In this document: in pieces, positions 3 to 63,400 of the stretch | How positions within the stretch are numbered: position 1 is the stretch's first letter | Layout of the letters: each line of letters opens with the position of its first letter | Virus record (IMG/VR): IMGVR_UViG_3300029913_000003 | Span: 128,001 to 192,000 of that record | Strand: one strand, 5' to 3' | Length of the DNA: 64,000 nt | From: a virus | Made by a program: the position numbers and the translations under genes | The notes under the pieces: generated by a model | Database searches by the model: none | Told to the model about the DNA's origin: nothing | Seen by the model: only the letters and a program-made list of their open reading frames with translations

Positions 3-242
3 TTATATCAAGGTGCTTATGCTATAGTTAGTATATTTGGGAAAACATATAAAATTTGGAGTATGGAAAGTTCTGGATTAGAAGATGAATTATATATTGA
101 AGGATTTCCAATTAACAATTTAGATGAAAATTCTAATCCTGGATATGTTGGTGACACAGAAAATATAGCAGAATTATTAAATAGTATTAATGAAGTTGGA
201 GGAATTGAAATATATAAAACAACAAATAAATTTAACATATAA
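3..242 (+). CDS. 3' fragment of a KFN[IL]-terminus family protein (5' end lies outside the window)
   Basis: Frame is open from the window edge and ends ...KTTNKFNI*. The stop overlaps the ATG at 244, the same junction seen in other family members. Confidence 0.35.
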   Translation, partial: LYQGAYAIVSIFGKTYKIWSMESSGLEDELYIEGFPINNLDENSNPGYVGDTENIAELLNSINEVGGIEIYKTTNKFNI

Positions 243-243
243 T

Positions 244-735
244 ATGATAACAAAATTTAATATATTTACTCTAAATGAGACTATGATATCTCATGATACA
301 CGTGAGTTACGCAGTGGTAATTATTTAACATTAGAAAGATTAGAAAATGGGAATCTTAAAATATCATTAACTGAAGAAGGAAAAGAAAAAGTTGAAGAAG
401 ATATTGATATAAAGGAAGCAGATTTTTTTGATTATTTTGAAAATATATCTTCAAACTCTGAATTATTATATATTTATAATATTTCTGATATTGGTATTAT
501 GATGGAAGCTCCTTGTATTACAATAGGATATTATATTGATGATTCTGGTGAATTAACTGACGAAGGTAATGAAGATTACTCAGAAATTTTTTATTATGCT
601 GATTATGCTATTAAAAATTTCACAGAAGAATTAAAAAATAACGGATTTGTAATATTCCAAACATCTGGTGTATTAACTCCAGAAGAATTTGAAGAATTTA
701 AATTAAATAAATCAGCAAACAAATTTAACATATGA
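244..735 (+). CDS. KFN[IL]-terminus paralog family protein
   Basis: Starts MITKFNIF right after the upstream KFNI stop. The ORF-track start at 190 is probably over-extended. Ends ...ANKFNI* overlapping the next ATG. Confidence 0.5.
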   Translation: MITKFNIFTLNETMISHDTRELRSGNYLTLERLENGNLKISLTEEGKEKVEEDIDIKEADFFDYFENISSNSELLYIYNISDIGIMMEAPCITIGYYIDDSGELTDEGNEDYSEIFYYADYAIKNFTEELKNNGFVIFQTSGVLTPEEFEEFKLNKSANKFNI

Positions 736-1064
736 TAACAAATTTTAAAATATTTGAAGAAAATGACGATATATATTTTTCAGTAGGTGATGAAGTAATA
801 TGCATTCACGGTGAAAAAAGGAAAAATTATAATAGTACTGAACCAAAAGAAGGTAAAAAATATTTAGTATTAAAAATATATGAGGAAAATTTTGATGATG
901 AAGGAAATCCATTTATAATTGATCATCAATATGTAACAGAAAAATATAAAGGGGATTGGTGGATTGACGTTAAAGACATAAAACATAATATAATTTTAAA
1001 TCAATGCTTAGCTAATGATTTTAAATCAGAAATTATATTAGCATCAAACAAATTTAATTTATAA
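732..1064 (+). CDS. small protein with a GDxhhC N-motif and a KFNL terminus
   Basis: Starts MITNFKIFE, contains FSVGDEVICIHGEK resembling the GDKLLCKK family, and ends NKFNL. Confidence 0.5.
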   Translation: MITNFKIFEENDDIYFSVGDEVICIHGEKRKNYNSTEPKEGKKYLVLKIYEENFDDEGNPFIIDHQYVTEKYKGDWWIDVKDIKHNIILNQCLANDFKSEIILASNKFNL

Positions 1065-1066
1065 AA

Positions 1067-1092
1067 AAAGCTACTAAATTTTTAGTAGCTTT
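1067..1092. terminator. perfect AT-rich hairpin between convergent genes, a bidirectional terminator candidate
   Basis: aaagctactaaa-tt-tttagtagcttt gives a 12-bp stem. Confidence 0.5.
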
Positions 1093-1138
1093 TTAATTAA
1101 TCTAATTTTTTACTTAGTAATAGTTGTATATATTACAA

Positions 1139-1690
1139 TTATACAGCTTTCACAGGTACTGTTGTAGTATCTGTTACAGTTTCTACTACTTTAACAGGTA
1201 CTGTTGTAGCATCTGTTATTAAAGCGTCTACTACTTTAACAGGCTCTTCTGTTGTAGTTTTTTCTGCATCTGATTTAACATCAGATATAATTTTTTCAAT
1301 ATTAGCAACAAAAGTTTTAACGTCATCAACGGTAGTAACAATTGAATTTTTTGATTTTTCTTTAAAATCTAAAATAATTTTCTCAATTTTAGAAACAATA
1401 TCTTCAACATTAGCAACTTCTGTGACAAATGTCTTTTTAACATTATCAACATCTGTTACAATTGAATCTTTAATTTCATCAACTTTAGTAACAATTGAAT
1501 CTTTTACATCAATAACATCTTTAACGATATCATCGACTTTAGTAACAACTGAATCTTTTACATTATCAACGTCTTTTACGACATTATCTGCATTAGTAAT
1601 AATTGTTTTAGAATTATTTTTATACCAACCAATTCCAAAAATAAGTGCTAACACACCAAAAACAATAGTCAAAATTTGAAATATTCCCAT
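1139..1690 (-). CDS. membrane-anchored protein with tandem ~11-aa acidic/Val repeats
   Basis: N-terminal hydrophobic segment ILTIVFGVLALIFGIGW followed by repeated VTKVDDIVKDV-like units. Confidence 0.55.
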   Translation of the reverse strand: MGIFQILTIVFGVLALIFGIGWYKNNSKTIITNADNVVKDVDNVKDSVVTKVDDIVKDVIDVKDSIVTKVDEIKDSIVTDVDNVKKTFVTEVANVEDIVSKIEKIILDFKEKSKNSIVTTVDDVKTFVANIEKIISDVKSDAEKTTTEEPVKVVDALITDATTVPVKVVETVTDTTTVPVKAV

Positions 1691-1756
1691 AATCTTTTTT
1701 CTTTTTTATATTATAATAATTTGAATAAGTTTAAAATTTAATCAAAATAATTATAT

Positions 1757-8695: not shown

Positions 8696-10648
8696 TTAAA
8701 ATTCAAATTCTAATAAATCAATAAATTTTTTACCATTTTTAGTTTTAATATCATTTATTGTTATTTTTGATGATATAAGTTGACAGTAATATGTTAATGC
8801 ATTTTTTACATCAATTAAATTTGCACAAGGAGTTTTAATATCAGAAATAACAACATAATCTTCAATATATGATGCAAGAAAATTTGTTTCTACTTTTGAT
8901 TTTTTAGATAATACTAAATTTTTATCTTTATCTAAATATATTGTTATGATATTATTATTTAATTCTATATAACCTTCATTCGGTGTATTATGTACAATTT
9001 TTAATGAAAAATCATTTGTATGTGATGAATCATTTTGATCACTATATGATGAAGCTTGTTCTTTTATACCATTTTTAAAATTAAATTTATTTTTCTTAAT
9101 TACATGTTTACATGGAGGAACATTATATTTATTTTTTAAATATGAAAGATGAAGTTTGATGTGTTTTATTTCTGTATAAATTATAAAATTATAATTATGA
9201 TATCCACATGATCTACCTGCAAAACTTTGAACAATAAAACTTGTTCTATATGTAGAATCATTAACTGTAGTTCTATCAAATAACATTACAATATTTTCTT
9301 TCTCTAATTGATATGATTGCTTCATTTTCTCCTTAATAAATATTATGGTAGGAGCATCTGGTGCATTTTTTAATACATCATTAATAACTTCTTTATCTTT
9401 CTCATAATATGTCAAAGTTTTAAATCCATCAGGTATTAGATTATTTGTATTTGTATTTTTATTTATTCTAACAATATAATATCCTATTTTATTATTAAAG
9501 CTTTCTGCTTCATTTATAAAATGTTTTTCACCTTCTGTTGTTGATAAATCAAATGATTCTCTTAAAAAATTATTTTTTAAAAAATATTCTAAGCCTTTGT
9601 AATTAGGTCCGTGAGATAATTCAATAGTGTTCTTTCTTTTATATAAAATATTACCAACATGTTCTTCATACGGAGTTGCTGATATAGAAAATAAGAAAAT
9701 ATTTTTTTTTGATAAATCAGTTGAACCATTTAAATTTATACCATTTTTTTGAAGATAACTATTCATAGCACTATCAACATTTGATGCTAAATGAGCTTCA
9801 TCAATAAATATAATACAATTATTTAAATCACCTACTTTATTTTTTCTTGACCAACGAATTAAATCTGGATTATGCATAATACCATTCCTCTTTAATATTT
9901 TTTGATCATCTTGCCGACACTCTCCATGAGATATGTCAGTTTTTAATTGTTCTTTATTTGAATTATCACACATTGGAGTTATTAATACACTACTTCTAAA
10001 TTTCAAATTTAGATATTCTCTTAATTCTTGATAAGTTTCTAATAAATATATTATATTACGTACAACACCAGTTTTACCTGCTTGAGTTTCTGCAGTTAAC
10101 ATATTATACCTACTATGTTTTGAATTAAGTTTTGATGATAACATATTATATATGCAACTTAATGATGCAAAAATCTGATCATCAAATACGTGTGATTTAT
10201 CATTAATATTATCAGTTCTATTTAATTTTTCTAATTTGATGCCAGTTAGACGATATATTTCAGAAATCAATTTATTAATACGAAATTTTATACTATGAGC
10301 TAAATTAGTATTTGCTGGAATAGTTGTGGTGGTGGTAGTTGTTTTACTATTACTATTAGCAGATTTTATTAATTGGTGTTTTTTATTATATACAATATCT
10401 TTTAGATTTTCAATATCATATTTAGTACATTTATCATTTTTAATTCTAATATCTATTAATTTATTAATTGCAATAAGTGCTTTTTTTCGATTAGTATTCC
10501 ATTTCTTACTATATAAAGCATCAACTAATTGATCATTGCTATAACGACTAAAATCAAATTTTCTTACGTATGGTTTATTATTTTTAGTAAGTTGACCATT
10601 AATTAAATTTCTTTTAGCTTTAACACTAATAATGTTATTATTTACCAT
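8696..10648 (-). CDS. SF2 DEAH-box helicase downstream of cas3, possibly a CRISPR accessory
   Basis: Motif I TAETQAGKTGVV, motif II IIFIDEAH, motif III FSISAT, and a motif VI-like QSFAGRSCG. There is also a poly-Thr linker. Confidence 0.55.
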   Translation of the reverse strand: MVNNNIISVKAKRNLINGQLTKNNKPYVRKFDFSRYSNDQLVDALYSKKWNTNRKKALIAINKLIDIRIKNDKCTKYDIENLKDIVYNKKHQLIKSANSNSKTTTTTTTIPANTNLAHSIKFRINKLISEIYRLTGIKLEKLNRTDNINDKSHVFDDQIFASLSCIYNMLSSKLNSKHSRYNMLTAETQAGKTGVVRNIIYLLETYQELREYLNLKFRSSVLITPMCDNSNKEQLKTDISHGECRQDDQKILKRNGIMHNPDLIRWSRKNKVGDLNNCIIFIDEAHLASNVDSAMNSYLQKNGINLNGSTDLSKKNIFLFSISATPYEEHVGNILYKRKNTIELSHGPNYKGLEYFLKNNFLRESFDLSTTEGEKHFINEAESFNNKIGYYIVRINKNTNTNNLIPDGFKTLTYYEKDKEVINDVLKNAPDAPTIIFIKEKMKQSYQLEKENIVMLFDRTTVNDSTYRTSFIVQSFAGRSCGYHNYNFIIYTEIKHIKLHLSYLKNKYNVPPCKHVIKKNKFNFKNGIKEQASSYSDQNDSSHTNDFSLKIVHNTPNEGYIELNNNIITIYLDKDKNLVLSKKSKVETNFLASYIEDYVVISDIKTPCANLIDVKNALTYYCQLISSKITINDIKTKNGKKFIDLLEFEF

Positions 10649-10740
10649 GGTTATATATTTTAATTACAGACAAATATAAGGATAATATTTGAAACAAACA
10701 AAAAAAGAAAGTATTTTTAACCTTCTTTTTTAAAATTTAA

Positions 10741-13038: not shown

Positions 13039-13157
13039 ATTTTTTATTTTAATTGTGAATAAAAATAATTTTTTAATTATTTATAATATAAATCATAAAT
13101 TTAATTACTGATTTATATAAATATAATAAACACATATTTAAATAGTGTCACTATTTT

Positions 13158-15565: not shown

Positions 15566-15666
15566 AGGATATTTATAATTAATTGATATTGAGTTATTTA
15601 TAGTATATATTAATAAATAAAAATGAGTTATTAATATACGTATATCATTATATTTATTCATTTTTA
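15566..15666 (-). promoter_or_regulatory. putative CRISPR leader
   Basis: AT-rich 101-bp gap between the cas6 stop and the consensus terminal repeat at 15530. The first repeat at 13158 is a variant, so the leader is placed at this end. Confidence 0.4.
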
Positions 15667-17254: not shown

Positions 17255-17264
17255 ATTATTAGAA

Positions 17265-42258: not shown

Positions 42259-42702
42259 TTATAAATTAAATTTTGCTGATGCTCTAATAGAACTCAAATC
42301 ACCTAGTGCTTTTGGATCATATTTCATATTATTTATATATTCTAACGAATTTTTTGAAAATTCTGTTTTAAATTTAGCAATAAAAGGTTCAGGATTTTCC
42401 ATATAATAAATATCATTTGATCCTTTATTTTCAAGTACTGCTTGATAATAATTATGAGTATCATTTTTATCATTTCCAATTCTAAATTTAATAATATATA
42501 TAGGATAACCATATCTACTAACTGATATATCAAACCACTCATCATTTAATACATCATTTACATTTTCATTCCAGTATATAACAGTTGGATGACTTACATA
42601 ACCTTCAGCTATATTAAAATTTTCATTTATAAAATCTAAATATTTGTTTAACATAAAAAATTGATATTCTTTTTTTAATATATATAAAAAAATGAAATTC
42701 AA
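42259..42702 (-). CDS. hypothetical protein
   Basis: 147-aa ORF. Confidence 0.45.
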   Translation of the reverse strand: MNFIFLYILKKEYQFFMLNKYLDFINENFNIAEGYVSHPTVIYWNENVNDVLNDEWFDISVSRYGYPIYIIKFRIGNDKNDTHNYYQAVLENKGSNDIYYMENPEPFIAKFKTEFSKNSLEYINNMKYDPKALGDLSSIRASAKFNL

Positions 42703-44687: not shown

Positions 44688-45047
44688 ATGATAGATACAA
44701 GAAATGAAGATTTAGTAAAAAAATATTTTGATTTAGTTCAAGAAGAAATCAAAAGATTAATTTCTCAAGATAAAGAAATAAAGAAAAGTGATGTGCAAAC
44801 ATTTAATGATGAAATTTTCAATCAATCTGATGAAATTAAAAGTGAGATAAGTAATTACATCGATCAAGCAACAATGAATGATTTAGATATTAATAAAATT
44901 GCTAAAATTCTTTATGATAAATTTAAAGTTCAAACTAAAAATAATGTATTCAATCAAACGGATTCACAGAATGTGCCTAATACTTTAATGGGCGAGAATA
45001 AACACATAAAAACATTTGAACAATTTAATTATGATAACAAATTTTAA
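44688..45047 (+). CDS. hypothetical protein
   Basis: 119-aa ORF. Confidence 0.4.
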   Translation: MIDTRNEDLVKKYFDLVQEEIKRLISQDKEIKKSDVQTFNDEIFNQSDEIKSEISNYIDQATMNDLDINKIAKILYDKFKVQTKNNVFNQTDSQNVPNTLMGENKHIKTFEQFNYDNKF

Positions 45048-45729
45048 AAAATATACATTAAATGAAACATATGAATTATCTGGAAAGAATTCATTTTTAA
45101 CTTATTTGCAGATAGTTTCAAATCATGATTATCATTTTATTTCGAATGATACATATAGAAAATTATACAAATATCATGTATTTTTTTCAACTGAAACTAT
45201 AACAGGAATAGAAGATTATGTAGATATTTTTAAATATAAACACTCATTAGCATCAGCATATGAAATATTATTACAAATAAAAGATAATAAATTAGCATTC
45301 TTTTTTGGTATAAAAGAAAATTCTACATTAAGATATGGATTTTTAGATTTAGATACACAAAGGAGTTATGTTGTTGGAGAATTTATATTTACTAAAGAAT
45401 TTTTTGGATCAATATCTAAATATAAATCTATGCAGTTTGTTAATAAAATAATACAGAATACTGATGCTAAAAAATTACCAATACTATCAAAGATAAAACA
45501 AGATTGTGAACAATTTTACAAAGGTAAGAAGAAAACAAAAGTAGAAATATCAGACAATAAAGTGATTATTTATATAACAAGAGATCAATTCACTGATGAT
45601 GATATAAATATGAATCGTCCATTCAGATCATTAGATAATTGGGCTTCTAAAAAAATGTGGAGAAACAAAGTTGAATGTAGCGTTGATGATGAAGGCGATC
45701 CAATAAAATTTATATTGATAGTGAAATGA
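45016..45729 (+). CDS. hypothetical protein
   Basis: 237-aa ORF with a 4-nt overlap with the next gene. Confidence 0.45.
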   Translation: MNNLIMITNFKKYTLNETYELSGKNSFLTYLQIVSNHDYHFISNDTYRKLYKYHVFFSTETITGIEDYVDIFKYKHSLASAYEILLQIKDNKLAFFFGIKENSTLRYGFLDLDTQRSYVVGEFIFTKEFFGSISKYKSMQFVNKIIQNTDAKKLPILSKIKQDCEQFYKGKKKTKVEISDNKVIIYITRDQFTDDDINMNRPFRSLDNWASKKMWRNKVECSVDDEGDPIKFILIVK

Positions 45730-46324: not shown

Positions 46325-46668
46325 AATATATTAAAACATTTGAATCAATATCAAAAGGAATCAATAATATAACTACTATTGATTGCTCTGGAGATAATTT
46401 AACTGAATTACCTGAATTACCAGATAGTTTAATTACTTTATATTGTAATAATAATTTTTTAACTAAAATTAAAAAATTACCTCCTAATTTGAAACATTTA
46501 AAATGTTCTCATAATCATAATTTATCTGAGTTACCTATATTACCAGAAACTATGACTGAATTACGTTGCTATAACACTAAATTACCTTATAATAATCTAA
46601 TTGAATATAAAAAATGGTTAGATAAAGAGCATCCTGAAATATCAAAATCTAAACAATTTAATTTATGA
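46321..46668 (+). CDS. MKYIKTFE...QFNL family member with leucine-rich-repeat-like units
   Basis: LTELPELPDSLITLYCNNNFLTKIKKLPPNLKHLKCSHNHNLSELPILPETMTELRCYN. Confidence 0.55.
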   Translation: MKYIKTFESISKGINNITTIDCSGDNLTELPELPDSLITLYCNNNFLTKIKKLPPNLKHLKCSHNHNLSELPILPETMTELRCYNTKLPYNNLIEYKKWLDKEHPEISKSKQFNL

Positions 46669-47447
46669 AATACTTAAAATATTTTGAAACAAAATTAGAA
46701 GTTGAATATCATTGTCTTGAATGTGGATGGATAGGCTGGTTACCTATGACCAAAATAGTTAAATGTCCAAATTGTGGAAATATTAATGATATATGGAAAG
46801 AAGGCGAATCAATACCTGAAAGACATAAAAAAATGAATTATTTATCTGAAAATATTAATATTATTAAACAACAACCTTTTTATTTAAGTGGAGATATATT
46901 ATACATATCAGATGATATGGCAAAATTAATGACTCCAACATATGCAAAATTAAATAAACTTTATAAAAATAAAGGAGTTCGTGATTATATCAATCAAGAA
47001 CAAATTGATTTTTATAATAATGAAAAAGATGATAAAGGTTATTATAAATCTAGAAATATTAATACTAATATAACTGTAAGATATGAAAGGATGTATGCTA
47101 TGACAATACTTATAAAAAGACTTGGTGGAGTTCTTGAAAATAAATATGGAGAATTTCAATATTTTATAGGAGGAACATCAGGAGATCACGATATGCATGG
47201 TAAAAACATGGTGAGAGATACAAAAGAATGTAATTATAATCTAATGATAAAATATTATCCTATTATTGAACATATAAAAAATTTTTACAAAAGATTAAAA
47301 TCTAAAGACGAAGGATTTTTTGATATAATTAAAGATTCATTAGATAAAGATATAATGTTAGCTCAATACGGGGTACCAAAAGAACTAAAAAAATATTTCA
47401 AAAATGCTGAAGATGTGGCAATAAATGTTAATAAATTTAATATATAA
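46665..47447 (+). CDS. MKYLKYFE...KFNI family member with a CxxC...CxxC zinc-ribbon-like N-terminus
   Basis: YHCLECGWIGWLPMTKIVKCPNCG, and a C-terminus NVNKFNI*. Confidence 0.5.
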   Translation: MKYLKYFETKLEVEYHCLECGWIGWLPMTKIVKCPNCGNINDIWKEGESIPERHKKMNYLSENINIIKQQPFYLSGDILYISDDMAKLMTPTYAKLNKLYKNKGVRDYINQEQIDFYNNEKDDKGYYKSRNINTNITVRYERMYAMTILIKRLGGVLENKYGEFQYFIGGTSGDHDMHGKNMVRDTKECNYNLMIKYYPIIEHIKNFYKRLKSKDEGFFDIIKDSLDKDIMLAQYGVPKELKKYFKNAEDVAINVNKFNI

Positions 47448-50500: not shown

Positions 50501-50726
50501 CGCAAATAGTAAATTTATATTACCTATTAAAATATTTTTTAAATTATCTGGTGGAACAAATGATTCTATAACATTTCCAACTAATTTATCTACATCTCCA
50601 TATGTAATAAGGAAATTAAGAATATTTATTGAATCTGAAAGCTTAACTAGACCATTTGAATTCGAAATTATATTTAAAATATTTAGAAATAATACATCAT
50701 CAAATAGAAGTAGTACAGCATCTTAA
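47541..50726 (+). CDS. large Asn/Ser/Thr/Tyr-rich protein, a putative structural, fiber or surface protein
   Basis: 1061-aa ORF with low-charge, beta-prone composition. It is adjacent to a second ~1,100-aa protein. Confidence 0.5.
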   Translation: MINQQNSFVSLAEQLAVLNKNSTEVMTKLNDVVTSRNSVINVNLMNSDGTTSSYQFPTVGQLKNELDIANRNIQKLAGLADSTAYVSDGTTMRRIYVDDLNSEPSPIDSLDTINNFTSINNSFFESLCDPILAIELDLTDKIDQKVKKVLSRRYIIEFQKDQYGNLTSDGANSKSDFENNFLNRNDIFIDDLTAWYTNTKNNGVFQRNEPYDEQIFDLDYDSLQYYGIFDVVGIDNDTINNKMWYVLGSITYYDYTGNTKQLSVGDELIINKKDSSTLWTINEVSTAKSNYRVILERVEGLDPVPILSQGLKIYSPVLPARTIKISIGYDEYNVIFIKPINTDSNVISSTWSYGTSFYTNNLVLDTNSTVSMTRYYSDNVFDYGAILKDLIAKNIPSQFGVIPNVPNLTATNFKVLQTNTHLTNTADSAKIQSLNVQKVSINSQLEQLNDAIIEQNKELSTKQYKSTSDKQASQTTLNNLINQQSSLTKSYTSIVNQITAQNTGAISDVEAEFSVRGFWSVPEPIIINTVGENQKQEVVQFIVQYRYSATGGSAPTTVGFDLNLTENIYTNYISTGDIVDQTKAYQNPSVSTQSVTETGYFSNWYQFTTDARTRTYNSALNVWTWDIEDVTDANIKKVNQLDIPLHPNETVDIRIKSISEVGYPDALITSDWSNIMTIDFPDDLAQVGNENATILQSAQNDQIYNQIESDFNSKGLTAHLQQSYYVNDLYVAHTDINLGTSFKDSSGNMIMLSDYLTSLTNRILALEQIVSNAKGELSISLYQNTNSVIIQNGASITQKIVCEKYAELSGTTTRTYYNSTYSTNDYYLEFDNLSQSSQLGLLSYRKYVPTISGDNRFYNPIYSNGSLATYVDSNDNLQTQVDNQFVWISDTSGNNAIYNSGVTYDANGLGQVLYSKNWNIGLTGTTVPNSGGTYSTPINIFNDINWTGGTWIADNNYETDFPVTIHPYIDNINDYVYADKSGVELINANSKFILPIKIFFKLSGGTNDSITFPTNLSTSPYVIRKLRIFIESESLTRPFEFEIIFKIFRNNTSSNRSSTAS

Positions 50727-50746
50727 ATATAAAATATTAAAAAATT

Positions 50747-53700
50747 ATGATAAATAATAGCTTTCAATTATTAAGAACAAATCCAGCACTAACAACTAAT
50801 GTTAAATTAGTTGTTAGTTCTGATTATAAGTTCTATTTAGAATCATTTGATACAAATTCTCAATTATCTAATCAAAAATATAAACATTTTTCAATATCAA
50901 AAAATAATTTATATGAAAATCAAATTGTTAAATTTTATGATGGACTATCATCACAATTGGCATTTGATGTTAAATATGATTCTGATGATTCTACTGTATT
51001 TTCTAAATACGAACAACAATTTGATGATATTTATTGGAGTGGTGCTAAATCAGTTGAAGATACATGGTATAATGAAACATATGAATATTTTGCGCCATTA
51101 TTTATAAGAAAAAATAATATACCAGATGGATTTGTTATATTAAGAGTAGATGATTCCGCTCCTTATGATATCCAAGATGATGATTTAGGTGCTGGTAAAA
51201 TTACAAAAGATAATTTTAATTCTCAAATTGTTAATAATTGGAAATGCGTATCTTTTGTTGATATGAGATATAATACAGATTTAGGATTATTTTTAAATAC
51301 AAATATTACAAATAATACATCATATCCAGAAAGATCATTTGATTTGGATTTTAGATCATATGAATATTCTAAATTTTACGGAATAGATTATAATAATGGA
51401 GGATATGTTAATATTTCTAATTTTTTACAATCAACATTGCAATATGAACAACCACATTTTAAACTTGAATCTGATATTATAGAGTCATTTAAAACAAATA
51501 ATTTAATATATCCTCATATTTTAAATTTTAAATTTTTATTTAATGATGTACCAGCAGATCCTGTTAATATACATAATTATTCATTAAATAGATATTATGG
51601 TTTTTATGCTGATAAATTAGAATTGATTACTAATTTAACTTCATATATAACTCCAGAATTGATAAGTGGATTTACATTGAAGAATAATATATTTGGCTAT
51701 ATGTCAGGAAGTACTTTCATACCAACTAATGAATCTCCATTTGTAGAAGGTTTCTTTTTAGATAAAACTTATTGGATACAACTTACGTCATCTGAGACTG
51801 ATAATGAATTTTATCAAGTAGTACTAGTGTATAATAACGGTGTTAATACATATAGAGTTATTAGTGATTTTGATATGAGTGGTTCTACTTTTAATGTTTC
51901 AAATGATAGAACGTGCTTTATTAATTATACTGATGGCTATATTTATAATTGTCAAACTATTAATAATCCATCAGGTATTACTAATTATATATCTGGATAT
52001 ACTTCTAACTTTAATATTGATCCATATTACTCAGGAAATACTATTAAATCAATGTATGGTGATTTATATTTAATACTAATTGATGGTATATATCATGTAC
52101 TAAAATGTAAAAATGATAGCTATTTTATACAAAGTGATTACGCAATAAATTCTTACACAACAGGACTAGAATATTGGAAAGGTGGTAAAAATAGTAATTA
52201 TTATACTACAAAACAAATTTATACATATGGAAATAAACCATTAATCTATCCTGTGTATAGAATAAAATTTAATGATATTAAAGATTTTGATTTTAATAGA
52301 GTAAATACACATTTTGCTGATTTTGACTATGAAAAAGATATTTATACTGCAACTGATGAACAAAAATTATATGCTATAGATTATACTGATACTTCAGTAT
52401 TAAGTCAAAATTATATGACATATCCAAGAGGTGAAGATGGACAATATCAAATAATGAATGTATCTTCTGAATATATCGCAGATGACGAACTTTATGAAAT
52501 ATCATTTAACGATTTAACAGAAATATGGAGAAAAAATCCATCAGTTGTAAAATGGGGGTTCGCTGGCTCAAATTCTAATTGCGATTATCCATATAAATTA
52601 AATAATTCAATTAGTATAGGAGACGTATTTAATGCAACTGCAGATGTATTTAGCTTGCTACCAACAGAAGTAGAAAAAAATTTAGATTACTGCTACAGAA
52701 TAGGTAATTTTTTCTCAGGTAATACAAATAATATTATTAAATATTTAAATCAAACTACTAACATAGAAGTAGATTTTATGGAAAATTATAGTAAAAAATT
52801 TAATTTAGATTTATATCTAAATTCAAATGTTGATTATTTTGATTATTTTTTTAAAAATAAAACATATTTTACTATAGATGATATTAATTATACAAAACAA
52901 ACATTAAAATATTCAACTTTTCAAGCAGGCGATATATATACAGCATCTAGTACATTATTTAAAGGTTTAAATATTAACGCATTAAATGTTACAAGTGTAT
53001 CAAGAGATATTAATGGATCAATTACAAGTATAGTTGCTGATAATAGTAAAAATTTTAATGATTATAAATTTGCAATAATTCTTAATGATGTTTATCAATA
53101 TTATACTGGTAATACATATGATTCAACATATGAAGGTGGATTATCAGGAAATACGATAATTGATATATCATCAAATGCAATACACGCATTTTTAAATGAA
53201 GAATTTAAAAATATTTTAGTTGTTGTTAATGTTAAAATACCAATTCAAAAAAATTATATTAGTTTAAATAATGTCGCCTTTTTTGGTGAAAAATTTGGAT
53301 TATATAATTCAAAAACATTAGACGGTAATAGTTTAGTCTATCCAGCAAATGTTAAAGAATTCGATCCATCATTAATAGTTGCATCAAATATATTTAACGC
53401 ATTTTATGATATGAATTCATTATCAGAATTTGATTCTGGTATAACATATTATTATATCAATTCAATTGGACAATCTGGATATACAGCACCTATGAATACA
53501 ACTGGAGGTACCATGGCATTAATACCTGATTGGGTTAAAAATGATACTCCATTTATTTTAAATTTAAATGATCCAGCAGTTTTAACAACTAAACAAAATT
53601 CATATATTAAAACTGCAATAAAAGGACCATTAACTAATATTTATGATAAATATCAAGTGTATTACGATACAAATCAAAAAACTAAATATAATGTTTCTGA

Positions 53701-54181
53701 ACCGTTAGCTAGATCTATGTCATTAAATATACAACAAAATATAATGAATACTTCAAACGGCGTATCATCAGATAATTCTATTTATAGATATAACGGCTCT
53801 TATGAACCAATATTTAATACAATACCAGTATTTAATAATACATTTTTATATGAATCAGGAAATACTATAAGTCAATTTGAATCAAACTATAAATTCGATA
53901 CTTCATTTGAAAACTTCGGTATGATTGAAGAATTAATTTATTCAAAAATTAATCCTGTAATATCTCCATTAAAATTAAGTAATACTAATACTGATGTATC
54001 TGTGTATCCAATAGTTGACGAATTTGGATATCAGTTTTCTTCAAGATTTATATTTAGCTCATCTTGGGATAACGATTTTTATGTAATAACAAATAATACT
54101 CAAAATATGAATAATAATGTCTTTTCAAATTTTTCTAACTATGAATATATAATTGATCCAATAAAAAATATAAATGATTAA
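50747..54181 (+). CDS. large Asn/Ser/Thr/Tyr-rich protein, a putative structural, fiber or surface protein
   Basis: 1144-aa ORF. Its stop overlaps the next gene's start. Confidence 0.5.
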   Translation: MINNSFQLLRTNPALTTNVKLVVSSDYKFYLESFDTNSQLSNQKYKHFSISKNNLYENQIVKFYDGLSSQLAFDVKYDSDDSTVFSKYEQQFDDIYWSGAKSVEDTWYNETYEYFAPLFIRKNNIPDGFVILRVDDSAPYDIQDDDLGAGKITKDNFNSQIVNNWKCVSFVDMRYNTDLGLFLNTNITNNTSYPERSFDLDFRSYEYSKFYGIDYNNGGYVNISNFLQSTLQYEQPHFKLESDIIESFKTNNLIYPHILNFKFLFNDVPADPVNIHNYSLNRYYGFYADKLELITNLTSYITPELISGFTLKNNIFGYMSGSTFIPTNESPFVEGFFLDKTYWIQLTSSETDNEFYQVVLVYNNGVNTYRVISDFDMSGSTFNVSNDRTCFINYTDGYIYNCQTINNPSGITNYISGYTSNFNIDPYYSGNTIKSMYGDLYLILIDGIYHVLKCKNDSYFIQSDYAINSYTTGLEYWKGGKNSNYYTTKQIYTYGNKPLIYPVYRIKFNDIKDFDFNRVNTHFADFDYEKDIYTATDEQKLYAIDYTDTSVLSQNYMTYPRGEDGQYQIMNVSSEYIADDELYEISFNDLTEIWRKNPSVVKWGFAGSNSNCDYPYKLNNSISIGDVFNATADVFSLLPTEVEKNLDYCYRIGNFFSGNTNNIIKYLNQTTNIEVDFMENYSKKFNLDLYLNSNVDYFDYFFKNKTYFTIDDINYTKQTLKYSTFQAGDIYTASSTLFKGLNINALNVTSVSRDINGSITSIVADNSKNFNDYKFAIILNDVYQYYTGNTYDSTYEGGLSGNTIIDISSNAIHAFLNEEFKNILVVVNVKIPIQKNYISLNNVAFFGEKFGLYNSKTLDGNSLVYPANVKEFDPSLIVASNIFNAFYDMNSLSEFDSGITYYYINSIGQSGYTAPMNTTGGTMALIPDWVKNDTPFILNLNDPAVLTTKQNSYIKTAIKGPLTNIYDKYQVYYDTNQKTKYNVSEPLARSMSLNIQQNIMNTSNGVSSDNSIYRYNGSYEPIFNTIPVFNNTFLYESGNTISQFESNYKFDTSFENFGMIEELIYSKINPVISPLKLSNTNTDVSVYPIVDEFGYQFSSRFIFSSSWDNDFYVITNNTQNMNNNVFSNFSNYEYIIDPIKNIND

Positions 54182-54498
54182 TGAAATATATTAAAACTTT
54201 TGAAAATGAATTATATAATGAACCAACATATTGGTTATTGCCGACTGATGATAGATTTGAAAAATCTTTAAAACAAATAAAATGTCCTAATAATAATATT
54301 AAATTTTTTTTAAATAATAATAGAATTAAAAATATTAAATATGTATTCATTTGTTATTCACCATATAATAAACAATGGGAATGGAATTCATATAAAGGTA
54401 AATTACTTGACGATTATCTTGAAGAAAATAATTATAAATTTGGTGGACATATAAATATGAATGAATTAGAATTAATTGCTGATAAATTTAACATATAA
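54181..54498 (+). CDS. MKYIKTFEN...KFNI family member, WLLPTDDRFE subtype
   Basis: YWLLPTDDRFEKSLKQIKCP, paralogous to 54503..54895. Confidence 0.55.
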   Translation: MKYIKTFENELYNEPTYWLLPTDDRFEKSLKQIKCPNNNIKFFLNNNRIKNIKYVFICYSPYNKQWEWNSYKGKLLDDYLEENNYKFGGHINMNELELIADKFNI

Positions 54499-55692: not shown

Positions 55693-56151
55693 ATGTCAGA
55701 AAACATTGAACTAGACTCAAGACAAAAATTTCAAAAAAAAATGATAGAATCTACAAAACAATGGATCGCTATTGTTAATAAATTAACTAATAGATTAATT
55801 AACGACGATCTAAAAAATATTGCAGATATTCAGGCAGAAGCTATAAGTCAACGACAAATTGTAGTCGAAGAAATTAAAAATTATAGCGTTAAAATACATA
55901 AACTGGTTCAAAAAACAAAAGTTCTAACAAAAGAAAGATTTGAATTCTATGCAACATCATATCAAGTTAAAACGTCTGGAACAGAAAAATTAAGACTTAT
56001 CGAAGCAGATTTATCAGAACATCAATGCTTTATAAATGAACTAGATGAACATGTAAATTTTTTAAGAGATACTTCTAAAAATCTAGAATCTATAAACTAT
56101 TCAGTTAAATCTAAAATTGAACTGGCTAATATATTAGGAGGTTACAAATAA
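55693..56151 (+). CDS. hypothetical helical protein
   Basis: 152-aa ORF. Confidence 0.45.
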   Translation: MSENIELDSRQKFQKKMIESTKQWIAIVNKLTNRLINDDLKNIADIQAEAISQRQIVVEEIKNYSVKIHKLVQKTKVLTKERFEFYATSYQVKTSGTEKLRLIEADLSEHQCFINELDEHVNFLRDTSKNLESINYSVKSKIELANILGGYK

Positions 56152-56384
56152 TGATAACTAATAATTATATTAAAAAATTTGAAATAAAATCAGATTTTAT
56201 AATAGCAGAAGGAATGAATAGCCCAAAAATTACAATAATACATTTCGATGACTCAAAATATATTTATAATTCTGACAAACTATCATTTGATTTATTAGAT
56301 AATACTATTAAAAACCATATAAATATTGTTTGTTTAAAACAAATTAGAAAAAAGAAATTATTTTTATTAAATGAAATTAGATGA
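56151..56384 (+). CDS. hypothetical small protein
   Basis: 77-aa ORF with an ATGA overlap. Confidence 0.4.
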   Translation: MITNNYIKKFEIKSDFIIAEGMNSPKITIIHFDDSKYIYNSDKLSFDLLDNTIKNHINIVCLKQIRKKKLFLLNEIR

Positions 56385-56553
56385 TTTGGCATATAAATTA
56401 TTTATAGAAAAATTTGGATTTATTTCAATTCAGGATTTTAAAATTAATATTTTTATGAAAAATAAAAATAGATATAAATCATATTACGATAAAGCAAATA
56501 AAATTCTAAGAAAAGAAAAATTAAAGACATTAAAATCATATGGAACTAAATAA
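56371..56553 (+). CDS. small protein with an RKEKLKTL terminus, tandem paralog 1
   Basis: ...YKSYYDKANKILRKEKLKTLKSYGTK. Confidence 0.4.
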   Translation: MKLDDLAYKLFIEKFGFISIQDFKINIFMKNKNRYKSYYDKANKILRKEKLKTLKSYGTK

Positions 56554-56713
56554 TTTAGCATATAAATTATTAATAAACTACTTAGGATTTACTCCAAAGT
56601 ATTATTGTAAAAAAGATTTTTTTATTAAAAATAAAAATAATTTTAAATCATATTACGATAAAGCAAATAAAATTTTAAGAAAAGAAAAATTAAAGGCATT
56701 ACATGAAATTTAA
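56540..56713 (+). CDS. small protein with an RKEKLKAL terminus, tandem paralog 2; below the ORF-track threshold
   Basis: Hand translation gives MELNNLAYKLLINYLGFTPKYYCKKDFFIKNKNNFKSYYDKANKILRKEKLKALHEI. It overlaps the helicase start. Confidence 0.35.
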   Translation: MELNNLAYKLLINYLGFTPKYYCKKDFFIKNKNNFKSYYDKANKILRKEKLKALHEI

Positions 56714-58265
56714 ATTAAATAAAGACAATTCAAAGTTAATTTTAACAGAATCAACCAAAGGAGAATATAACCAACTTAAACTATATCTAACCAGAAAAGT
56801 TCATAACTACCGTTTTATGAAAAGGTTCAAGCTTGGTGTATGGGATGGAAGTATAAGTTATTTTGGAAATCCAGGTGGATCAATTGACTTTGGATTATGG
56901 CAAGAAATATATAAATGTTGTAAAGAGTATGGTTATAAATTTATAATTGAAAATCAAGAACAATTTCCACGTAATAAAGATATATTAAGAGAAAATGTAC
57001 AAGATTTTGTGACTGAATTTTATAAAGATCATAAAACTCCTGATGGTAAACCTTTTATGCCATATGAACATCAAGTAGATGCAATATTTCAATTATTAAA
57101 ACATCAATATGGATTAATTGAAATTGCTACTGCTGGAGGTAAATCATTGGTATTTGGCACATTACTATTTTATTATTTAAAAAATATAAATACAAATGCT
57201 AAATTTTTATTGATTGTCCCAAGTATAAGTTTAGTTACTCAATTTTATAATGATCTTAATGATTATAATTACGGTTTTAATAATGATAATAAAAACCCTA
57301 TTGATATTAGAATTGATGAAGTTATGAGTGATAAACCAAGAAAATATAGAGATGGTGAAAAAATACCAAATATATACATTGGAACTTATCAATCATTAGA
57401 AAAATATCCTAAAACATTTTTTGACCAATTTGAAGTTGTAGCATGTGATGAAGCACATACTGCAAAAGCTATTACCATTCAAACTATTTTAACAAAAACG
57501 TTTGGAGTTGCAAAATTACGATTCGGAATGAGTGGATCTTATCCTTCGGATTCTTCAATAGAAATATTAACAATTCAATCTTTAATGGGTCCTAAATTAA
57601 TAAATATTAGTGCTAGAAAATTAATAGATAAAGGATTAATATCAGATCTTAAAATAAAAGTTATCATGTTACATCATGATAATCATAAATTTGCAGAAGG
57701 AGTTAATAATATAAAAAAAACTGACGGTCAACGTGCATGGATTTTAGAACGTGAATACGTACATAATTCAGCAAAAAGAAAAACATTTATTAAAAATTTA
57801 ACAGATAAATTTAAATCTAATTCTCTTATATTATTTCATACTATTACTTATGGAACAGAATTATATAATTATATCAAAGATAATTGCATTGGTAAAGATG
57901 TGTTCTATATTGACGGTACAACATCTACAGAAAAAAGAGAATATATCAAGAAAAAATTAGAAGATACTTCAGGTAATCCTAAAATACTTTTAGCATCTTT
58001 CGGAGTATTTTCTGTCGGCGTAAGTGTTAAAGCAATAACAAATATTATCTTTGCGGATTCTTATAAAGAGCCTAAAATAATAAGGCAAGCAATAGGGAGA
58101 GGTCTAAGATTACACAAAGAAAAAACAAAATTAATCGTATTTGATTTGGTAGACATTTTTCATCCTGACTATAAAACAATATTATGGAAACAATATGAAT
58201 CTAGAAGAGATGAAGTATATAAAAAACAACAATATCCTTATGATGAATTAAAGGTCAAATTATAA
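56703..58265 (+). CDS. SF2 DEAH-box helicase, resembling phage or viral replication/transcription helicases
   Basis: Motif I ATAGGKS, motif II VVACDEAH, and motif VI RQAIGRGLR. Confidence 0.6.
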   Translation: MKFKLNKDNSKLILTESTKGEYNQLKLYLTRKVHNYRFMKRFKLGVWDGSISYFGNPGGSIDFGLWQEIYKCCKEYGYKFIIENQEQFPRNKDILRENVQDFVTEFYKDHKTPDGKPFMPYEHQVDAIFQLLKHQYGLIEIATAGGKSLVFGTLLFYYLKNINTNAKFLLIVPSISLVTQFYNDLNDYNYGFNNDNKNPIDIRIDEVMSDKPRKYRDGEKIPNIYIGTYQSLEKYPKTFFDQFEVVACDEAHTAKAITIQTILTKTFGVAKLRFGMSGSYPSDSSIEILTIQSLMGPKLINISARKLIDKGLISDLKIKVIMLHHDNHKFAEGVNNIKKTDGQRAWILEREYVHNSAKRKTFIKNLTDKFKSNSLILFHTITYGTELYNYIKDNCIGKDVFYIDGTTSTEKREYIKKKLEDTSGNPKILLASFGVFSVGVSVKAITNIIFADSYKEPKIIRQAIGRGLRLHKEKTKLIVFDLVDIFHPDYKTILWKQYESRRDEVYKKQQYPYDELKVKL

Positions 58266-60537: not shown

Positions 60538-60567
60538 AAAAAGACTGTCATAATGACAGTCTTTTTA
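60537..60567. terminator. hairpin between convergent genes
   Basis: aaaagactgtcat-a-atgacagtctttt. Confidence 0.5.
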
Positions 60568-60568
60568 A

Positions 60569-61279
60569 TTATATATTGAAATTATTTGACTTTAATATGT
60601 AGTCATATTCTATTCTTATATTATCATCTAATATTTCATCAGGAATATTATTAATTAGAAATGAATTATTCTTTAAATATTGTTTTTGAAAATTATATGT
60701 CATAAAAATATTTATAATATTTTTTGCTGAAATTTTATTTGAAACATCTATATCTTTTGATGGAGTCCACTTTTTAGTATTTAAATCTAATTTATATCCA
60801 TTATAATAAAATATCATTTTATCTAAAAATAATATATTACTTAATGATGGTAATTTATTTTTAAAATTATCATTTATAAATTTAATTGTATATTTTGCAT
60901 AATCTGTATCCCAATTTAACCAAAAATTAGTAGATAAAGAATATATAGAATTTATTATTAATAAATCTTCATATGATAAATTAGATTTAATTATTTGTTT
61001 TTTATTTGTCATTATTTGATTAGATTTTGTGATATCACTTGTGATACTATTAACATAATCAATTATATTACCTAAAAGTTTCATTGGATTATTAATTATT
61101 GTGTTACTTTCAAGATAATCTATAATCTCACTATATGCTTCATGCCAATAAAATGAATATAATTCATTATTATGAAGTATATTTAATGTTCCACGTCTAG
61201 GGGAGAAATCAAACCCAAAGGATTTGTTTTTACCTATATCAGATATATTGAATTCATTTAATTTTTTGATGTATTTCAT
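60569..61279 (-). CDS. MKYIKKLNEF...NNFNI family member, long form
   Basis: Family-type N-terminus and C-terminus. Confidence 0.45.
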   Translation of the reverse strand: MKYIKKLNEFNISDIGKNKSFGFDFSPRRGTLNILHNNELYSFYWHEAYSEIIDYLESNTIINNPMKLLGNIIDYVNSITSDITKSNQIMTNKKQIIKSNLSYEDLLIINSIYSLSTNFWLNWDTDYAKYTIKFINDNFKNKLPSLSNILFLDKMIFYYNGYKLDLNTKKWTPSKDIDVSNKISAKNIINIFMTYNFQKQYLKNNSFLINNIPDEILDDNIRIEYDYILKSNNFNI

Positions 61280-61282
61280 AAT

Positions 61283-62104
61283 TTACATATTAAAATTTGC
61301 TGCATCTTTTTCTAAATTAAAAACATTAGATATTTTACAATAATATATAACTGTAAATTTAATACCTACTATTTCTTTATGATCTTTAACTTTTGCTGTC
61401 ATATATATAGTATCACCTTTTTCTACTATTCTACCAATATTATAAGTCATATATCTATTACCTTCTTCATCTATTAATTTACAAGTATATTGAGTGCCAA
61501 ATTCAGTGTTTTGGATTTTAAAATTATAAACATCAGCTTTTATTGTAATTTTACTTCCAATCTCACCAACATATTTACTTATACTTTCTTCTTGATTTTT
61601 TTTGGTTAATGTTTCAAAGAATAGATTTTTATATTTTTCAATTTCATTCGCCATATCTTCATTTCCTTGAAATCCTTTAGATAACCAAACAACATATTGA
61701 GGATCATCTACGAATACTTCACCTATTGTTTCTCCACGATGTTTTCCAAATTTTAATATTTTATTTTTTTCTGCTTGAAATAATCCAGCATATGTACCAA
61801 ATCTATCTATAATAACTGGAATTTGACCAGAAGCTTTAGCAGCTTTTTTAACTGCTGTCGTAAAGTCAGTACTTAAATTACAAATATAATAGCATGATGC
61901 ACTTCTTGGATTCCATCTCCAAAAAGTATAATAAACGGAGTATTTTCCAGATACATCTATATAAAAGCAGCCTACATCTCTAATTGTCAATTTTTTATCT
62001 TTTCCTTCTTCTAATATTTTTTCAGCTTCTAAAACATCTTCATCACTTGGTTGTATGAGTTGATTCATTTTAGCTTCTTTGATATATTGCAAGTATGTTT
62101 TCAT
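61283..62104 (-). CDS. hypothetical protein
   Basis: 273-aa ORF. Confidence 0.45.
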   Translation of the reverse strand: MKTYLQYIKEAKMNQLIQPSDEDVLEAEKILEEGKDKKLTIRDVGCFYIDVSGKYSVYYTFWRWNPRSASCYYICNLSTDFTTAVKKAAKASGQIPVIIDRFGTYAGLFQAEKNKILKFGKHRGETIGEVFVDDPQYVVWLSKGFQGNEDMANEIEKYKNLFFETLTKKNQEESISKYVGEIGSKITIKADVYNFKIQNTEFGTQYTCKLIDEEGNRYMTYNIGRIVEKGDTIYMTAKVKDHKEIVGIKFTVIYYCKISNVFNLEKDAANFNM

Positions 62105-62201
62105 ATTATGAATGATTTATTTTTTAATTATATATTAAAAAAAATAAACAAAAAATAATAATTATCATATAACTTAATAATAAAAAAAATATAAATATAA
62201 T

Positions 62202-62687
62202 ATGATAATAACATTAACGATTGATGATATTTTTAGACGTTGCTTATGGAGTGACTACAAAAGATTTGTACTTAAAGATAAAAATGAGCAAGAGATTCAA
62301 GAAATTGTAAAAGAAAATAAGCCAATCGTCATTTCAGAAAATGATGCATATGCAATAGGATTACTAAAAACAATAGAGACAGATAATTTAGTACATAGGT
62401 TTATTGTTCATATGAAAGAGATGATAAGTATAAAATCAAATATTTTTGATAAAAATGTTTATTTATCTGTTAGAATAGTAGAAAATGAATTAGAAAGTTA
62501 TAAGAAAAGATTTCCTGATTATTGGGATTCAGATCCAGTGTTTACTGATGCTATAGTAGATTTGAATAATTTCATTAATAATGCGTTACAGCAAATTAAA
62601 AAATTTGAAGTTTACGAATTTAAAATTAAAGATAAAAAAATTAGATATTATTTATCTAAAGATATTAAAAAAATGATTGAAAATTAA
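62202..62687 (+). CDS. hypothetical protein
   Basis: 161-aa ORF. Confidence 0.45.
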   Translation: MIITLTIDDIFRRCLWSDYKRFVLKDKNEQEIQEIVKENKPIVISENDAYAIGLLKTIETDNLVHRFIVHMKEMISIKSNIFDKNVYLSVRIVENELESYKKRFPDYWDSDPVFTDAIVDLNNFINNALQQIKKFEVYEFKIKDKKIRYYLSKDIKKMIEN

Positions 62688-62718
62688 AAATAATTTTGTA
62701 TCTTTGTAATATAATATT

Positions 62719-62748
62719 AAAAAGAACCTTATATTGAGGTTCTTTTTT
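62719..62748. terminator. hairpin between convergent genes
   Basis: aaaagaacct-tatattg-aggttctttt. Confidence 0.5.
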
Positions 62749-63020
62749 TATAAATTAAATTTAATTGCATTTATATTAGATTCAAATTCATCTATTTCAT
62801 CTGTAGTTAAATATCTAATTATTTTATAAAAAAGAACAGTATCAGTTTTATTATCATCATATAATATTTTATATGATGTTGTAGAGTCAAAGTTATTTTT
62901 TATTATTTTTGATTTTTTATCAACTCTATGATGTGGATCAAAATAAATATTAACTAAAATATATTCACCTTCTTTATAATTTTTATTTTCAATCATTTCA
63001 AATTTCTTAATATATTTCAT
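62748..63020 (-). CDS. MKYIKKFE...KFNL family member
   Basis: Family-type N-terminus and C-terminus. Confidence 0.5.
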   Translation of the reverse strand: MKYIKKFEMIENKNYKEGEYILVNIYFDPHHRVDKKSKIIKNNFDSTTSYKILYDDNKTDTVLFYKIIRYLTTDEIDEFESNINAIKFNL

Positions 63021-63400
63021 AAATTAAATTTGTTTATATCTGTTTCAAGTTTATTAAGTTTATTATAAATATTTTTTATAACAGTTAAATTAGATTTATT
63101 ATCATTTTTATATATATCTAATGAAAATCTAATATTATTTGATGATTCACTATAATTAAAACTTACTTCATATTTATCACCGTTATATTCAAATTTATAA
63201 TCTGGATAATTTCTGGTAAAATGAATTTCATTATTCGTCCTTTGTTTAGAATTTGATGCGCTATGCCAAAAATAACATTTCTTATATTTTTCAGCGCAAT
63301 CTATTGTATATTTAAGTTTTTTTGTCAATTCTGGATCATATAAAAAATCATCTTCTATCTTCTTTTTAGATTCATTTATAAATTCAATAAAATTTTTCAT
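63017..63400 (-). CDS. MKNFIEFINE...KFNL family member
   Basis: Family-type C-terminus and an ATGA overlap. Confidence 0.5.
   Translation of the reverse strand: MKNFIEFINESKKKIEDDFLYDPELTKKLKYTIDCAEKYKKCYFWHSASNSKQRTNNEIHFTRNYPDYKFEYNGDKYEVSFNYSESSNNIRFSLDIYKNDNKSNLTVIKNIYNKLNKLETDINKFNL

Follow-up and report, generated by a model that had tools for sequence, protein, structure and literature searches.

The 64,000-nt stretch analyzed here (hereafter the window) spans positions 128,001–192,000 of IMG/VR record IMGVR_UViG_3300029913_000003, an uncultivated huge phage. It carries four arrays of a lineage-specific multigene family that makes up about 15% of the window genes. Each product has three parts: an 8–9-residue N-terminal tag (N-tag), a variable middle and a C-terminal tag (C-tag). 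The N-tag follows the consensus M-K-[YH]-[IL]-K-x-[FY]-E, with K5 in 169, F/Y7 in 181 and E8 in 166 (89%) of 186 members, and has the variants MIT[NK]FK[IL][FY]E, MKIxRFNE and M..Y..FI.E. The C-tag is an amphipathic stretch ending [ATS]-x-K-[FY]-N-[IL]-COOH, where K(−4) is present in 203 of 208 members and Asn(−2) is essentially fixed. Taken as a whole, the best explanation, to which we assign a probability of about 0.6, is a two-tagged family with ends conserved at the peptide level, middles exchanged by cassette shuffling, and tags that would act as address or docking peptides. A preliminary description of the window had proposed either a signal in the junction DNA or cassette shuffling. The feature is real and larger than the window shows; the DNA-signal interpretation is refuted and the shuffling interpretation is supported.

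Among 100 open reading frames (ORFs) of at least 60 aa in the window, 13 ended in FN[ILM], compared with 0.11 expected from the internal rate of this tripeptide. The preliminary description had listed at least 12 genes ending in KFN[IL] and immediately followed by a gene starting MKY(L/I)K(R/T/K)FE. All 12 are members of one family (Table 1), but 11 end in KFN[IL] or QFNL and one (60569–61279, minus strand) in NNFNI. Beyond the list, three to four additional genes belong to the family (42259–42654, 44688–45047, 45031–45729 and 61283–62104). The described succession was found at 5 of the 12, namely at the ends 45989, 46324, 46668, 54498 (with a 4-nt gap) and 63017 (minus strand). Of the other seven, two precede MIT[NK]F starts (ends 242 and 735) and five are operon-last or lie before non-family DNA. 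The 26-nt junction string, described as nearly invariant, had only 3 matches in the window even with 3 mismatches allowed. The statement that the middles differ between shared ends held, with leucine-rich repeat (LRR), zinc-ribbon and WLLPTDDRFE units seen among unrelated middles. Seven ATGA stop/start overlaps were present in the window (732–735, 45726–45729, 45986–45989, 46321–46324, 46665–46668, 63017–63020 and 63397–63400), plus one TAATG overlap, and a hairpin-T terminator directly followed the stop of four family genes (1064, 60569, 62748 and 42259).

Conservation at the junctions was compared with an expectation in which codons were redrawn from family interior usage, with the amino acids unchanged and the ATG overlap kept. 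The test set held 108 non-identical ATGA junctions of 44 nt each, from the window and related metagenomic phage contigs. Mean pairwise identity was 0.792, compared with 0.784 ± 0.0035 in the simulation. The recurrent junction string thus carries no nucleotide conservation beyond what the peptides, codon bias and overlap produce, which is the outcome that the preliminary description had set in advance as speaking against its claim of DNA conserved beyond the encoded amino acids. About 90% of interior codons end in A or T (K AAA 91%, F TTT 88%, N AAT 89%, Y TAT 92%), and the near-constant string results from this usage together with the conserved C-tag and N-tag peptides and the 4-nt overlap. 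For scans of AT-rich genomes this is a caution, as peptide conservation and extreme codon bias can fully explain a striking DNA repeat. The last sense codon ends in A because that A is the first base of the overlapping ATG, and it is the sole strongly forced base.

Third-base conservation fell below expectation at Asn (0.50 vs 0.80) and at Tyr3 (0.59 vs 0.85). The Asn(−2) codon was AAC in 41% of members and 50% of coupled junctions, compared with 11.5% in gene interiors, and the Tyr3 codon was TAC in 29% of members, compared with 7.8%. A general terminal-codon effect was considered as the cause of the AAC excess and rejected, since non-family genes showed this effect only weakly, with AAC in 17–26% of ends and TAC not enriched. 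As variation at synonymous sites equals or exceeds the background, both tags are held by selection on amino acids. Replacements within the tags were conservative (F/Y, I/L and K/R), and the C-tag was kept in operon-last genes that have no downstream start. In the fused 260-aa protein, residues 57–63 read MNYLSEN where the orthologues in the relatives L052, L023 and L053, which have no zinc ribbon, start MKYL[RK]YFEN; the former N-tag, now internal, has decayed. The conservative replacements and this decay argue that the tags function at free protein ends. N-tag and C-tag variants were only weakly associated, whether compared inside single genes or from one side of a junction to the other (p about 0.004–0.02), and relatedness confounds the association.

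These results make it unlikely that the junction is under selection as a nucleic-acid element (a site of recombination or a dedicated termination-reinitiation signal), with the peptides conserved as a consequence. Such an element would agree with the recurrence of the junction hundreds of times, with one crossover inside a junction (described below) and with the enrichment of A at −15 and C at −3 in coupled junctions. It would also agree with the A-ending last sense codon, which was invariable at overlaps and still present in 87 of 105 TAA genes without overlap. However, junction identity is close to that expected from amino acids, codon bias and overlap, the synonymous K, F, N, Y and I/L sites are as variable as described while substitutions conserve the protein (F/Y, I/L), and the C-tag stays intact before terminators. 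A recombination signal, moreover, needs nucleotide identity, and here this is not kept.

A more limited role in the mRNA did emerge. Shine–Dalgarno-like (SD-like) motifs were found upstream of 2 of 61 window genes, and leaders were A-rich from −21 to −9. In 153 of 264 unique C-tag genes the TGA stop and the following ATG overlapped, and in 142 of the 153 the next gene was a family member. A position-weight matrix for the translation initiation region (TIR) was built from the 20 nt upstream of 176 non-family genes, with leave-one-out scoring of true starts. C-tag codons at coupled junctions scored 3.48; true starts reached 2.89, and the sequence before internal ATGs −3.85. At codon −6 (Ala/Thr/Ser), the share of NCA was 90% in coupled and 65% in uncoupled genes, compared with about 50% in gene interiors. 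NCA at this codon puts an A at −15, a position within the A-rich part of real leaders. This synonymous A supports selection for an initiation role of the C-tag codons. Since these codons score like true TIRs in an SD-less genome, the end of each gene would form the initiation region of the next, and it is strongly indicated that gene ends double as ribosome landing pads. The earlier proposal that the junction acts at the nucleic-acid level is thereby reduced to the stop/start overlap, the TIR-like codons and the A at −15 in a genome lacking SD sites, with no extra nucleotide conservation. ATGA coupling as such is shared with known stop/start overlaps; here it operates without SD motifs, and the last six codons serve as the A-rich leader.

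Initiation is not the whole reason for the C-tag, because its conservation is tighter than the TIR profile needs and persists in operon-last genes. That the C-tag is a by-product of this dual coding, with the last six codons forming the initiation region of the next gene and KFN[IL] itself functionless, is therefore rather unlikely. The TIR-like scores, the lack of SD sites and the tracking of coupling by A at −15 would all be expected from it. Near-fixation of K(−4) and Asn(−2) would not, as the TIR tolerates A/T changes (A is 57–73% in real TIRs), nor would a tag that remains when the next ATG is displaced by 1–5 nt. Alternatives in the wider database, KYNL and KFNI, preserve the chemistry and not the bases. 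Fusion of neighbors by −1 frameshifting or readthrough was also considered and rejected: AAA-TTT-AAC is out of frame with the slippery pattern X XXY YYZ, and 128 of 208 members use TGA as a genuine stop.

A degenerate junction-string pattern gathered 58 stretches from IMG/VR phage contigs, some of them 80–90% identical to parts of the window. The window and these loci together contained 296 ORFs with both tags, 71 with the C-tag only and 41 with the N-tag only, so that 296 of 337 N-tagged ORFs also had the C-tag. The 208 unique two-tag proteins were 62–385 aa long (median 116), and their tag-trimmed middles fell into 76 BLAST clusters, 51 of which were singletons. The larger clusters were SH3-like “GDYVIC” (63), ankyrin (18), “WLLPTDDRF” (13) and LRR (7). 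Of 43 longer representatives, a few matched Pfam models, which were only Ank, LRR, Methyltransf_24, ExoX-like_C and two DUFs, and most matched none. The repeat models reached 1e-18 (Ank and Ank_2) and 5e-13 (LRR_4) in relatives. About 40 of 49 genes across 20 kb (about 80%) were family members in the relative L059. The gene there (2427–2855) that corresponds to the GNAT acetyltransferase gene in the window carries MKYIKKFE as its N-tag and ends in KSLNI, a near miss of the C-tag, so enzymes too are among the tagged proteins. The two tags are separable, because the N-tag stands alone on the 232-aa protein of the window and on the L059 GNAT, and similar N-termini occur with other C-termini in LR756501. 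In this 735-kb huge phage, the stretch L062 (LR756501.1 145413–186045) holds many related N-termini (MIKKFKLFE, MKIKKFNE and M..Y..FINE) without a KFN[IL] end. DPYGEE[DN]W, at the end of or within several LR756501 proteins, is possibly a different terminal tag.

Middles of non-homologous fold imply that different domains came to lie inside one shared pair of ends. It is accordingly very unlikely that the whole family arose from a single ancestral small gene by tandem duplication alone, with fast middles and slow ends but neither domain capture nor a special role of the ends, given ankyrin, LRR, SH3-like, class-I methyltransferase and zinc-ribbon folds and the range of lengths. Within sub-groups such duplication fits well, as the 63 SH3-like and 13 WLLPTDD members are plain paralogues, copy number differs between relatives (2 vs 4), and a second family in the window (18404–22305, described below) looks alike with a single fold.

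A profile built from the window members detected 151 clusters (50% identity) below E = 1e-3 among 1.84 billion representatives; nearly all of them aligned from first to last residue, with KYNL the commonest ending. The degenerate junction pattern had three matches in 596 Gb of bacterial and archaeal genomes, all by chance in unrelated housekeeping genes. No match to family members was found by tblastn in 50,697 GenBank phage records, and megablast of the locus also gave no match. Pfam and PHROGs scans of the members returned only LRR and weak matches, the family having no entry in either library, and no relevant account of proteins with such ends came up in a literature search. The two-tagged family is apparently phage-restricted and undescribed in Pfam, PHROGs, GenBank phage records and the searchable literature.

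Relatives at 80–90% nucleotide identity differed from the window by whole cassettes at three loci, and the suggestion of expansion by cassette shuffling was thus borne out. Locus 1 lies between the 232-aa gene and the 1061-aa gene; its members are 87, 112, 115 (LRR) and 260 aa long in the window and 109, 106, 116 (LRR) and 207 aa long in L052. At the same place, L023 and L053 have 109, 106 and 209 aa, without the LRR gene, and L012 has 109, 110 and 149 aa. At locus 2, after the 1144-aa gene, there are two WLLPTDD genes in the window and four in L053. At locus 3, from a conserved 161-aa gene to an M15 peptidase gene, the window has 273 and 236 aa and L006 has 243, 274, 137 and 98 aa, the 236-aa gene being exchanged in L006 for two different cassettes (137 and 98 aa).

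The 232-aa gene is an anchor kept in all relatives, with a counterpart of 31% identity in LR756501. Upstream of it, L052 has 951 bp with three extra cassettes (122, 107 and 105 aa) compared with the window. The flanks change partner within the shared ATGATAACAAA... stretch at window positions 45010–45066 (Table 1), the mark left by unequal homologous recombination of one junction with another. The gene that ends here, at 45047, has the same end arrangement in L052. Cassette turnover and a crossover inside the junction repeat together make the tag-coding repeats the substrate of unequal homologous recombination, and the conclusion that shuffling acts on repeats kept for protein reasons is supported.

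A similar process is known from the promoter-early stem-loop (PeSL) cassettes of T4-type hyperplastic regions, where short repeats act as crossover points between small nonessential genes (PMC2839356). As in the tagged family, recombination between the repeats inserts, deletes and replaces genes among close relatives. PeSL units, however, consist of intergenic promoter and terminator DNA, whereas the family junction is coding, contains no intergenic DNA and is conserved as amino acids. Terminator hairpins in the family occur only after operon-last genes, unlike those of PeSL units.

The remaining question is what the tags do. The closest known system is the internal proteins of T-even phages. 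The T4 leader, which targets these proteins to the capsid and so loads them for injection, has the sequence MKTYQEFIAE and is cut off after Glu (PMC8442874); the T4 proteins Ip1–3 have only this leader in common and sit in a variable hotspot, and T-even internal proteins are injected with the DNA, each blocking a different restriction enzyme (PMC12373910). Like the family, the T-even set comprises unrelated small proteins with an N-terminal leader of about 10 residues that is closed by Glu, encoded in a hotspot that varies between relatives. The family N-tag is also short and amphipathic, and its variants MKTYQQFNE, MKKYKEFINEA, MKNFIEFINE and MKTYLQYIKEA resemble the T4 leader. At least 76 unrelated middle groups carry the 8–9-aa N-tag, as is asked of a T4-type shared leader. 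The family is, however, one to two orders of magnitude larger than the T-even set, and its genes are chained by ATGA overlaps. By analogy, it would belong with leader-tagged, hotspot-encoded phage accessory proteins, as a variant of them, a likeness from which we infer its function.

The tags would then be address or docking peptides that give one common fate to many unrelated binding modules and enzymes. On the T4 analogy, the leading guess is a library of virion-loaded, co-injected proteins that would manipulate the host or counter its defenses, and the C-tag would be a second, lineage-specific signal beside a T4-like N-tag. Such a packaged and injected effector library is possible, and we put it forward tentatively. 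A two-ended “cargo code”, by which any domain between the tags would go to one destination (capsid and injection, or covalent or non-covalent docking to a virion or intracellular hub), is likewise a doubtful proposition at present. In the AlphaFold2 model of an LRR member, which was of moderate quality, the N-tag is a disordered extension outside the fold (predicted local distance difference test, pLDDT, 35); the model of an SH3-like member was unusable (pLDDT 48).

Large tandem sets of virion proteins have been described in giant phages, the heads of which may contain over 50 proteins, among them a tandem paralogue family with 20 members (PMC5694885). This family B of SPN3US comprises 20 mostly tandem head-protein genes (gp138–154 and others), with 2 to 20 copies between relatives (PMC5694885). 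It resembles the tagged family as a large tandem set in a giant phage; its copy number varies between relatives and its members are virion head proteins. Family B is nevertheless one homologous family by PSI-BLAST with no terminal tags around unrelated domains reported, and the two are likened by description only.

Several points weigh against the address-peptide explanation. The T4 leader system has no C-terminal counterpart, whereas the family has a conserved C-tag, and the main N-tag MKY[IL]KxFE, with K/T at P3, misfits the T4 (I/L)-x-E cleavage rule. Only the MIT ([IL][FY]E), FI.E (FINE) and YIKE variants fit this rule. Virion location and cleavage of the members would follow from likeness to T4, the members being known here from their genes. 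Homologues of the T4-type prohead protease and head genes were not found in a search confined to the collected loci. To our knowledge, dozens to more than 100 cargo proteins per genome would exceed any documented case. The structure models are weak (pLDDT 48 and 67) and would also allow a packed clasp of the N- and C-termini. Collecting the loci by pattern biases the family density and the junction statistics in favor of canonical junctions, and shared ancestry makes the sequences non-independent. The codon model also leaves the enrichment of AAC (Asn −2, hence C at −3) and TAC (Tyr3) unexplained.

The tags could instead dock to a partner outside the capsid, such as a C-terminal-peptide binder of PDZ or protease type, a chaperone or a compartment importer. 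They could also react with each other, through Lys–Asn isopeptide bonds that staple proteins or link head to tail. Isopeptide bonds of this kind are formed in HK97 and in pilins. In favor of docking, the motifs lie exactly at free ends, the C-tag ends in [FY]-N-[IL]-COOH (hydrophobic-x-hydrophobic-COOH), and the N-tag occurs without the C-tag in 41 genes and in LR756501, so that the tags can act separately. For the reaction, the N-tag offers a conserved Lys, aromatic residue and Glu, and the C-tag a Lys, an aromatic residue and the invariant Asn. Contact between the tags is hard to reconcile with LRR and ankyrin solenoids of very different length, the termini of which cannot easily meet, and with the free N-tag in the AlphaFold2 model. 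Both versions draw on motif chemistry and general knowledge and name only a candidate class of partner; taken jointly, they have a low probability.

If the cargo code proved true, the phage would carry a shuffled library of tens to hundreds of tagged modules, a counterpart of bacterial secretion effector repertoires that is far beyond the T4 internal-protein set in size, with a two-ended signal not described before. Huge phages have hundreds of genes of unknown function, and for a sizeable share of those seen here a terminal peptide pair framing interchangeable domains offers an organizing principle. Should the tags be sorting signals, the delivered effector set of a huge phage would be predictable from sequence, a ready-made tag pair would be available for loading foreign proteins, and the family would show in nature how microhomology between coding sequences can guide the shuffling of domains.

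Table 1. Tagged family genes and other features of the window (coordinates in window positions).
Feature	Coordinates	Strand	Remarks
Family gene	3..242	+	5' end cut by window edge; TTNKFNI*; next ATG (244) one base past TAA
Family gene, 163 aa	244..735	+	MIT-type N-tag MITKFNIF; C-tag ANKFNI*; ATGA overlap 732-735
Family gene, 110 aa	732..1064	+	MITNFKIFE...SNKFNL*; SH3-like middle (VGDEVIC); operon-last; hairpin-T terminator directly 3' of stop
Cas3-like HD-helicase gene	10741-13038	-	
CRISPR array	~13105-15600		~37 repeats of 36 nt (about GTTGAGACTCCCTTACGGATTTATATAAATAATATC); spacers ~30 nt
Cas6 gene	15667-16371	-	
Family gene, ~131 aa from ATG	42259..42654	-	Variant N-tag MLNKYLDFINE; C-tag SAKFNL*; operon-last, terminator after stop
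Family-related gene, 119 aa	44688..45047	+	Ends ...HIKTFEQFN-YDNKF*; no stop after FN; 5 extra codons, runs 17 nt into next gene
Recombinant junction (relative to L052)	45010..45066	+	57 nt align to both ends of 951-bp L052 segment
N-tag-only gene, 232 aa	45031..45729	+	MITNFKKYTLNET ... FILIVK*; ATGA overlap 45726-45729
Family gene, 87 aa	45726..45989	+	MKYLKRFE...SNKFNI*; SH3-like middle; ATGA overlap 45986-45989
Family gene, 112 aa	45986..46324	+	MKYLKRFE...KKFNL*; SH3-like middle; ATGA overlap 46321-46324
Family gene, 115 aa	46321..46668	+	MKYIKTFE...KQFNL*; LRR middle (Pfam LRR_4, 1.3e-6); ATGA overlap 46665-46668
Family gene, 260 aa, fusion	46665..47447	+	N-tag and zinc-ribbon cassette (residues 1-56), then second cassette; ends VNKFNI*
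Family gene, 105 aa	54181..54498	+	MKYIKTFE...WLLPTDDRFE...DKFNI*; ATG overlaps TAA stop of 1144-aa gene (50747-54181)
Family gene, 130 aa	54503..54895	+	MKYIKMFE...VNKFNI*; paralogue of 54181..54498
Family gene, 236 aa	60569..61279	-	MKYIKKLNEFNI ... SNNFNI*; operon-last, terminator
Family gene, 273 aa	61283..62104	-	T4-leader-like N-tag MKTYLQYIKEA; C-tag AANFNM*; middle matches ExoX-like_C (6e-8)
Family gene, 90 aa	62748..63020	-	MKYIKKFE...AIKFNL*; SH3-like middle; operon-last, terminator
Family gene, 127 aa	63017..63400	-	Variant N-tag MKNFIEFINE; C-tag INKFNL*; ATGA overlaps at both ends (63017-63020, 63397-63400)
GNAT acetyltransferase gene heading array	63397..63846	-	Chained by ATGA to next gene

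The window has a GC content of about 22% (78% AT). The best matches of its helicase (24027–25661) and of the 1061-aa protein (47541–50726), at 35–45% identity, were in the 635–735-kb uncultured phage genomes LR756501–4 and LR745206. Remoter matches of the same two proteins were in Lak megaphages, Sphingomonas phage PAU and Tenacibaculum, Chryseobacterium and Flavobacterium phages. One window protein recurs unchanged on a 346-kb contig, and a 711-kb contig carries a homologue of it with 68% identity. SD-less, A-rich initiation is the style of Bacteroidota (PMC6847099), and the near absence of SD motifs and the A-rich leaders of the window genes point to a probable Bacteroidota-type host. No tRNA genes or Rfam matches were found in the window. 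A sigma-70 promoter scan of the window gave 172 sites, compared with 177 in shuffled sequence, and carries no information because the DNA is so AT-rich.

Conservation of the two giant genes for 1061 and 1144 aa (47541–54181) extends to huge phages, Lak phages and Sphingomonas phage PAU. Their PAU counterparts, gp264 and probably gp265, adjoin a baseplate gene, and the two genes probably encode tail or baseplate proteins. They are flanked by two family arrays, both in translational chains with them. This arrangement, together with the position of the PAU homologues beside a baseplate gene, suggests late co-expression.

A phage-encoded CRISPR-Cas (clustered regularly interspaced short palindromic repeats) locus occupies 8696–18338 of the window (Table 1), and three neighbors of its cas genes (299, 357 and 650 aa) may be the remaining Cascade subunits. 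Directly beside the cas genes, at 18404–22305 on the minus strand, lies the second tandem family, with 15 consecutive genes of about 88 aa each. Its members have a conserved N-end, MK[NK]QN[LI]N[VI]GDKLLCK, a conserved C-end, FYTKQEERKIKLEKLYEE.., and a variable middle. Neighbors mostly overlap by 20 nt and in a few cases by 8–14 nt, and no Pfam match was found for this family. Two adjacent paralogous genes of 57–60 aa at 56371–56713 start MKLDDLAYKLF... and MELNNLAYKLL..., and both end in ...KSYYDKANKILRKEKLK plus a short divergent tail. They lie just upstream of a UvsW-like helicase gene (56703–58265), and a weakly UvsY-like gene was seen at 55693–56151.

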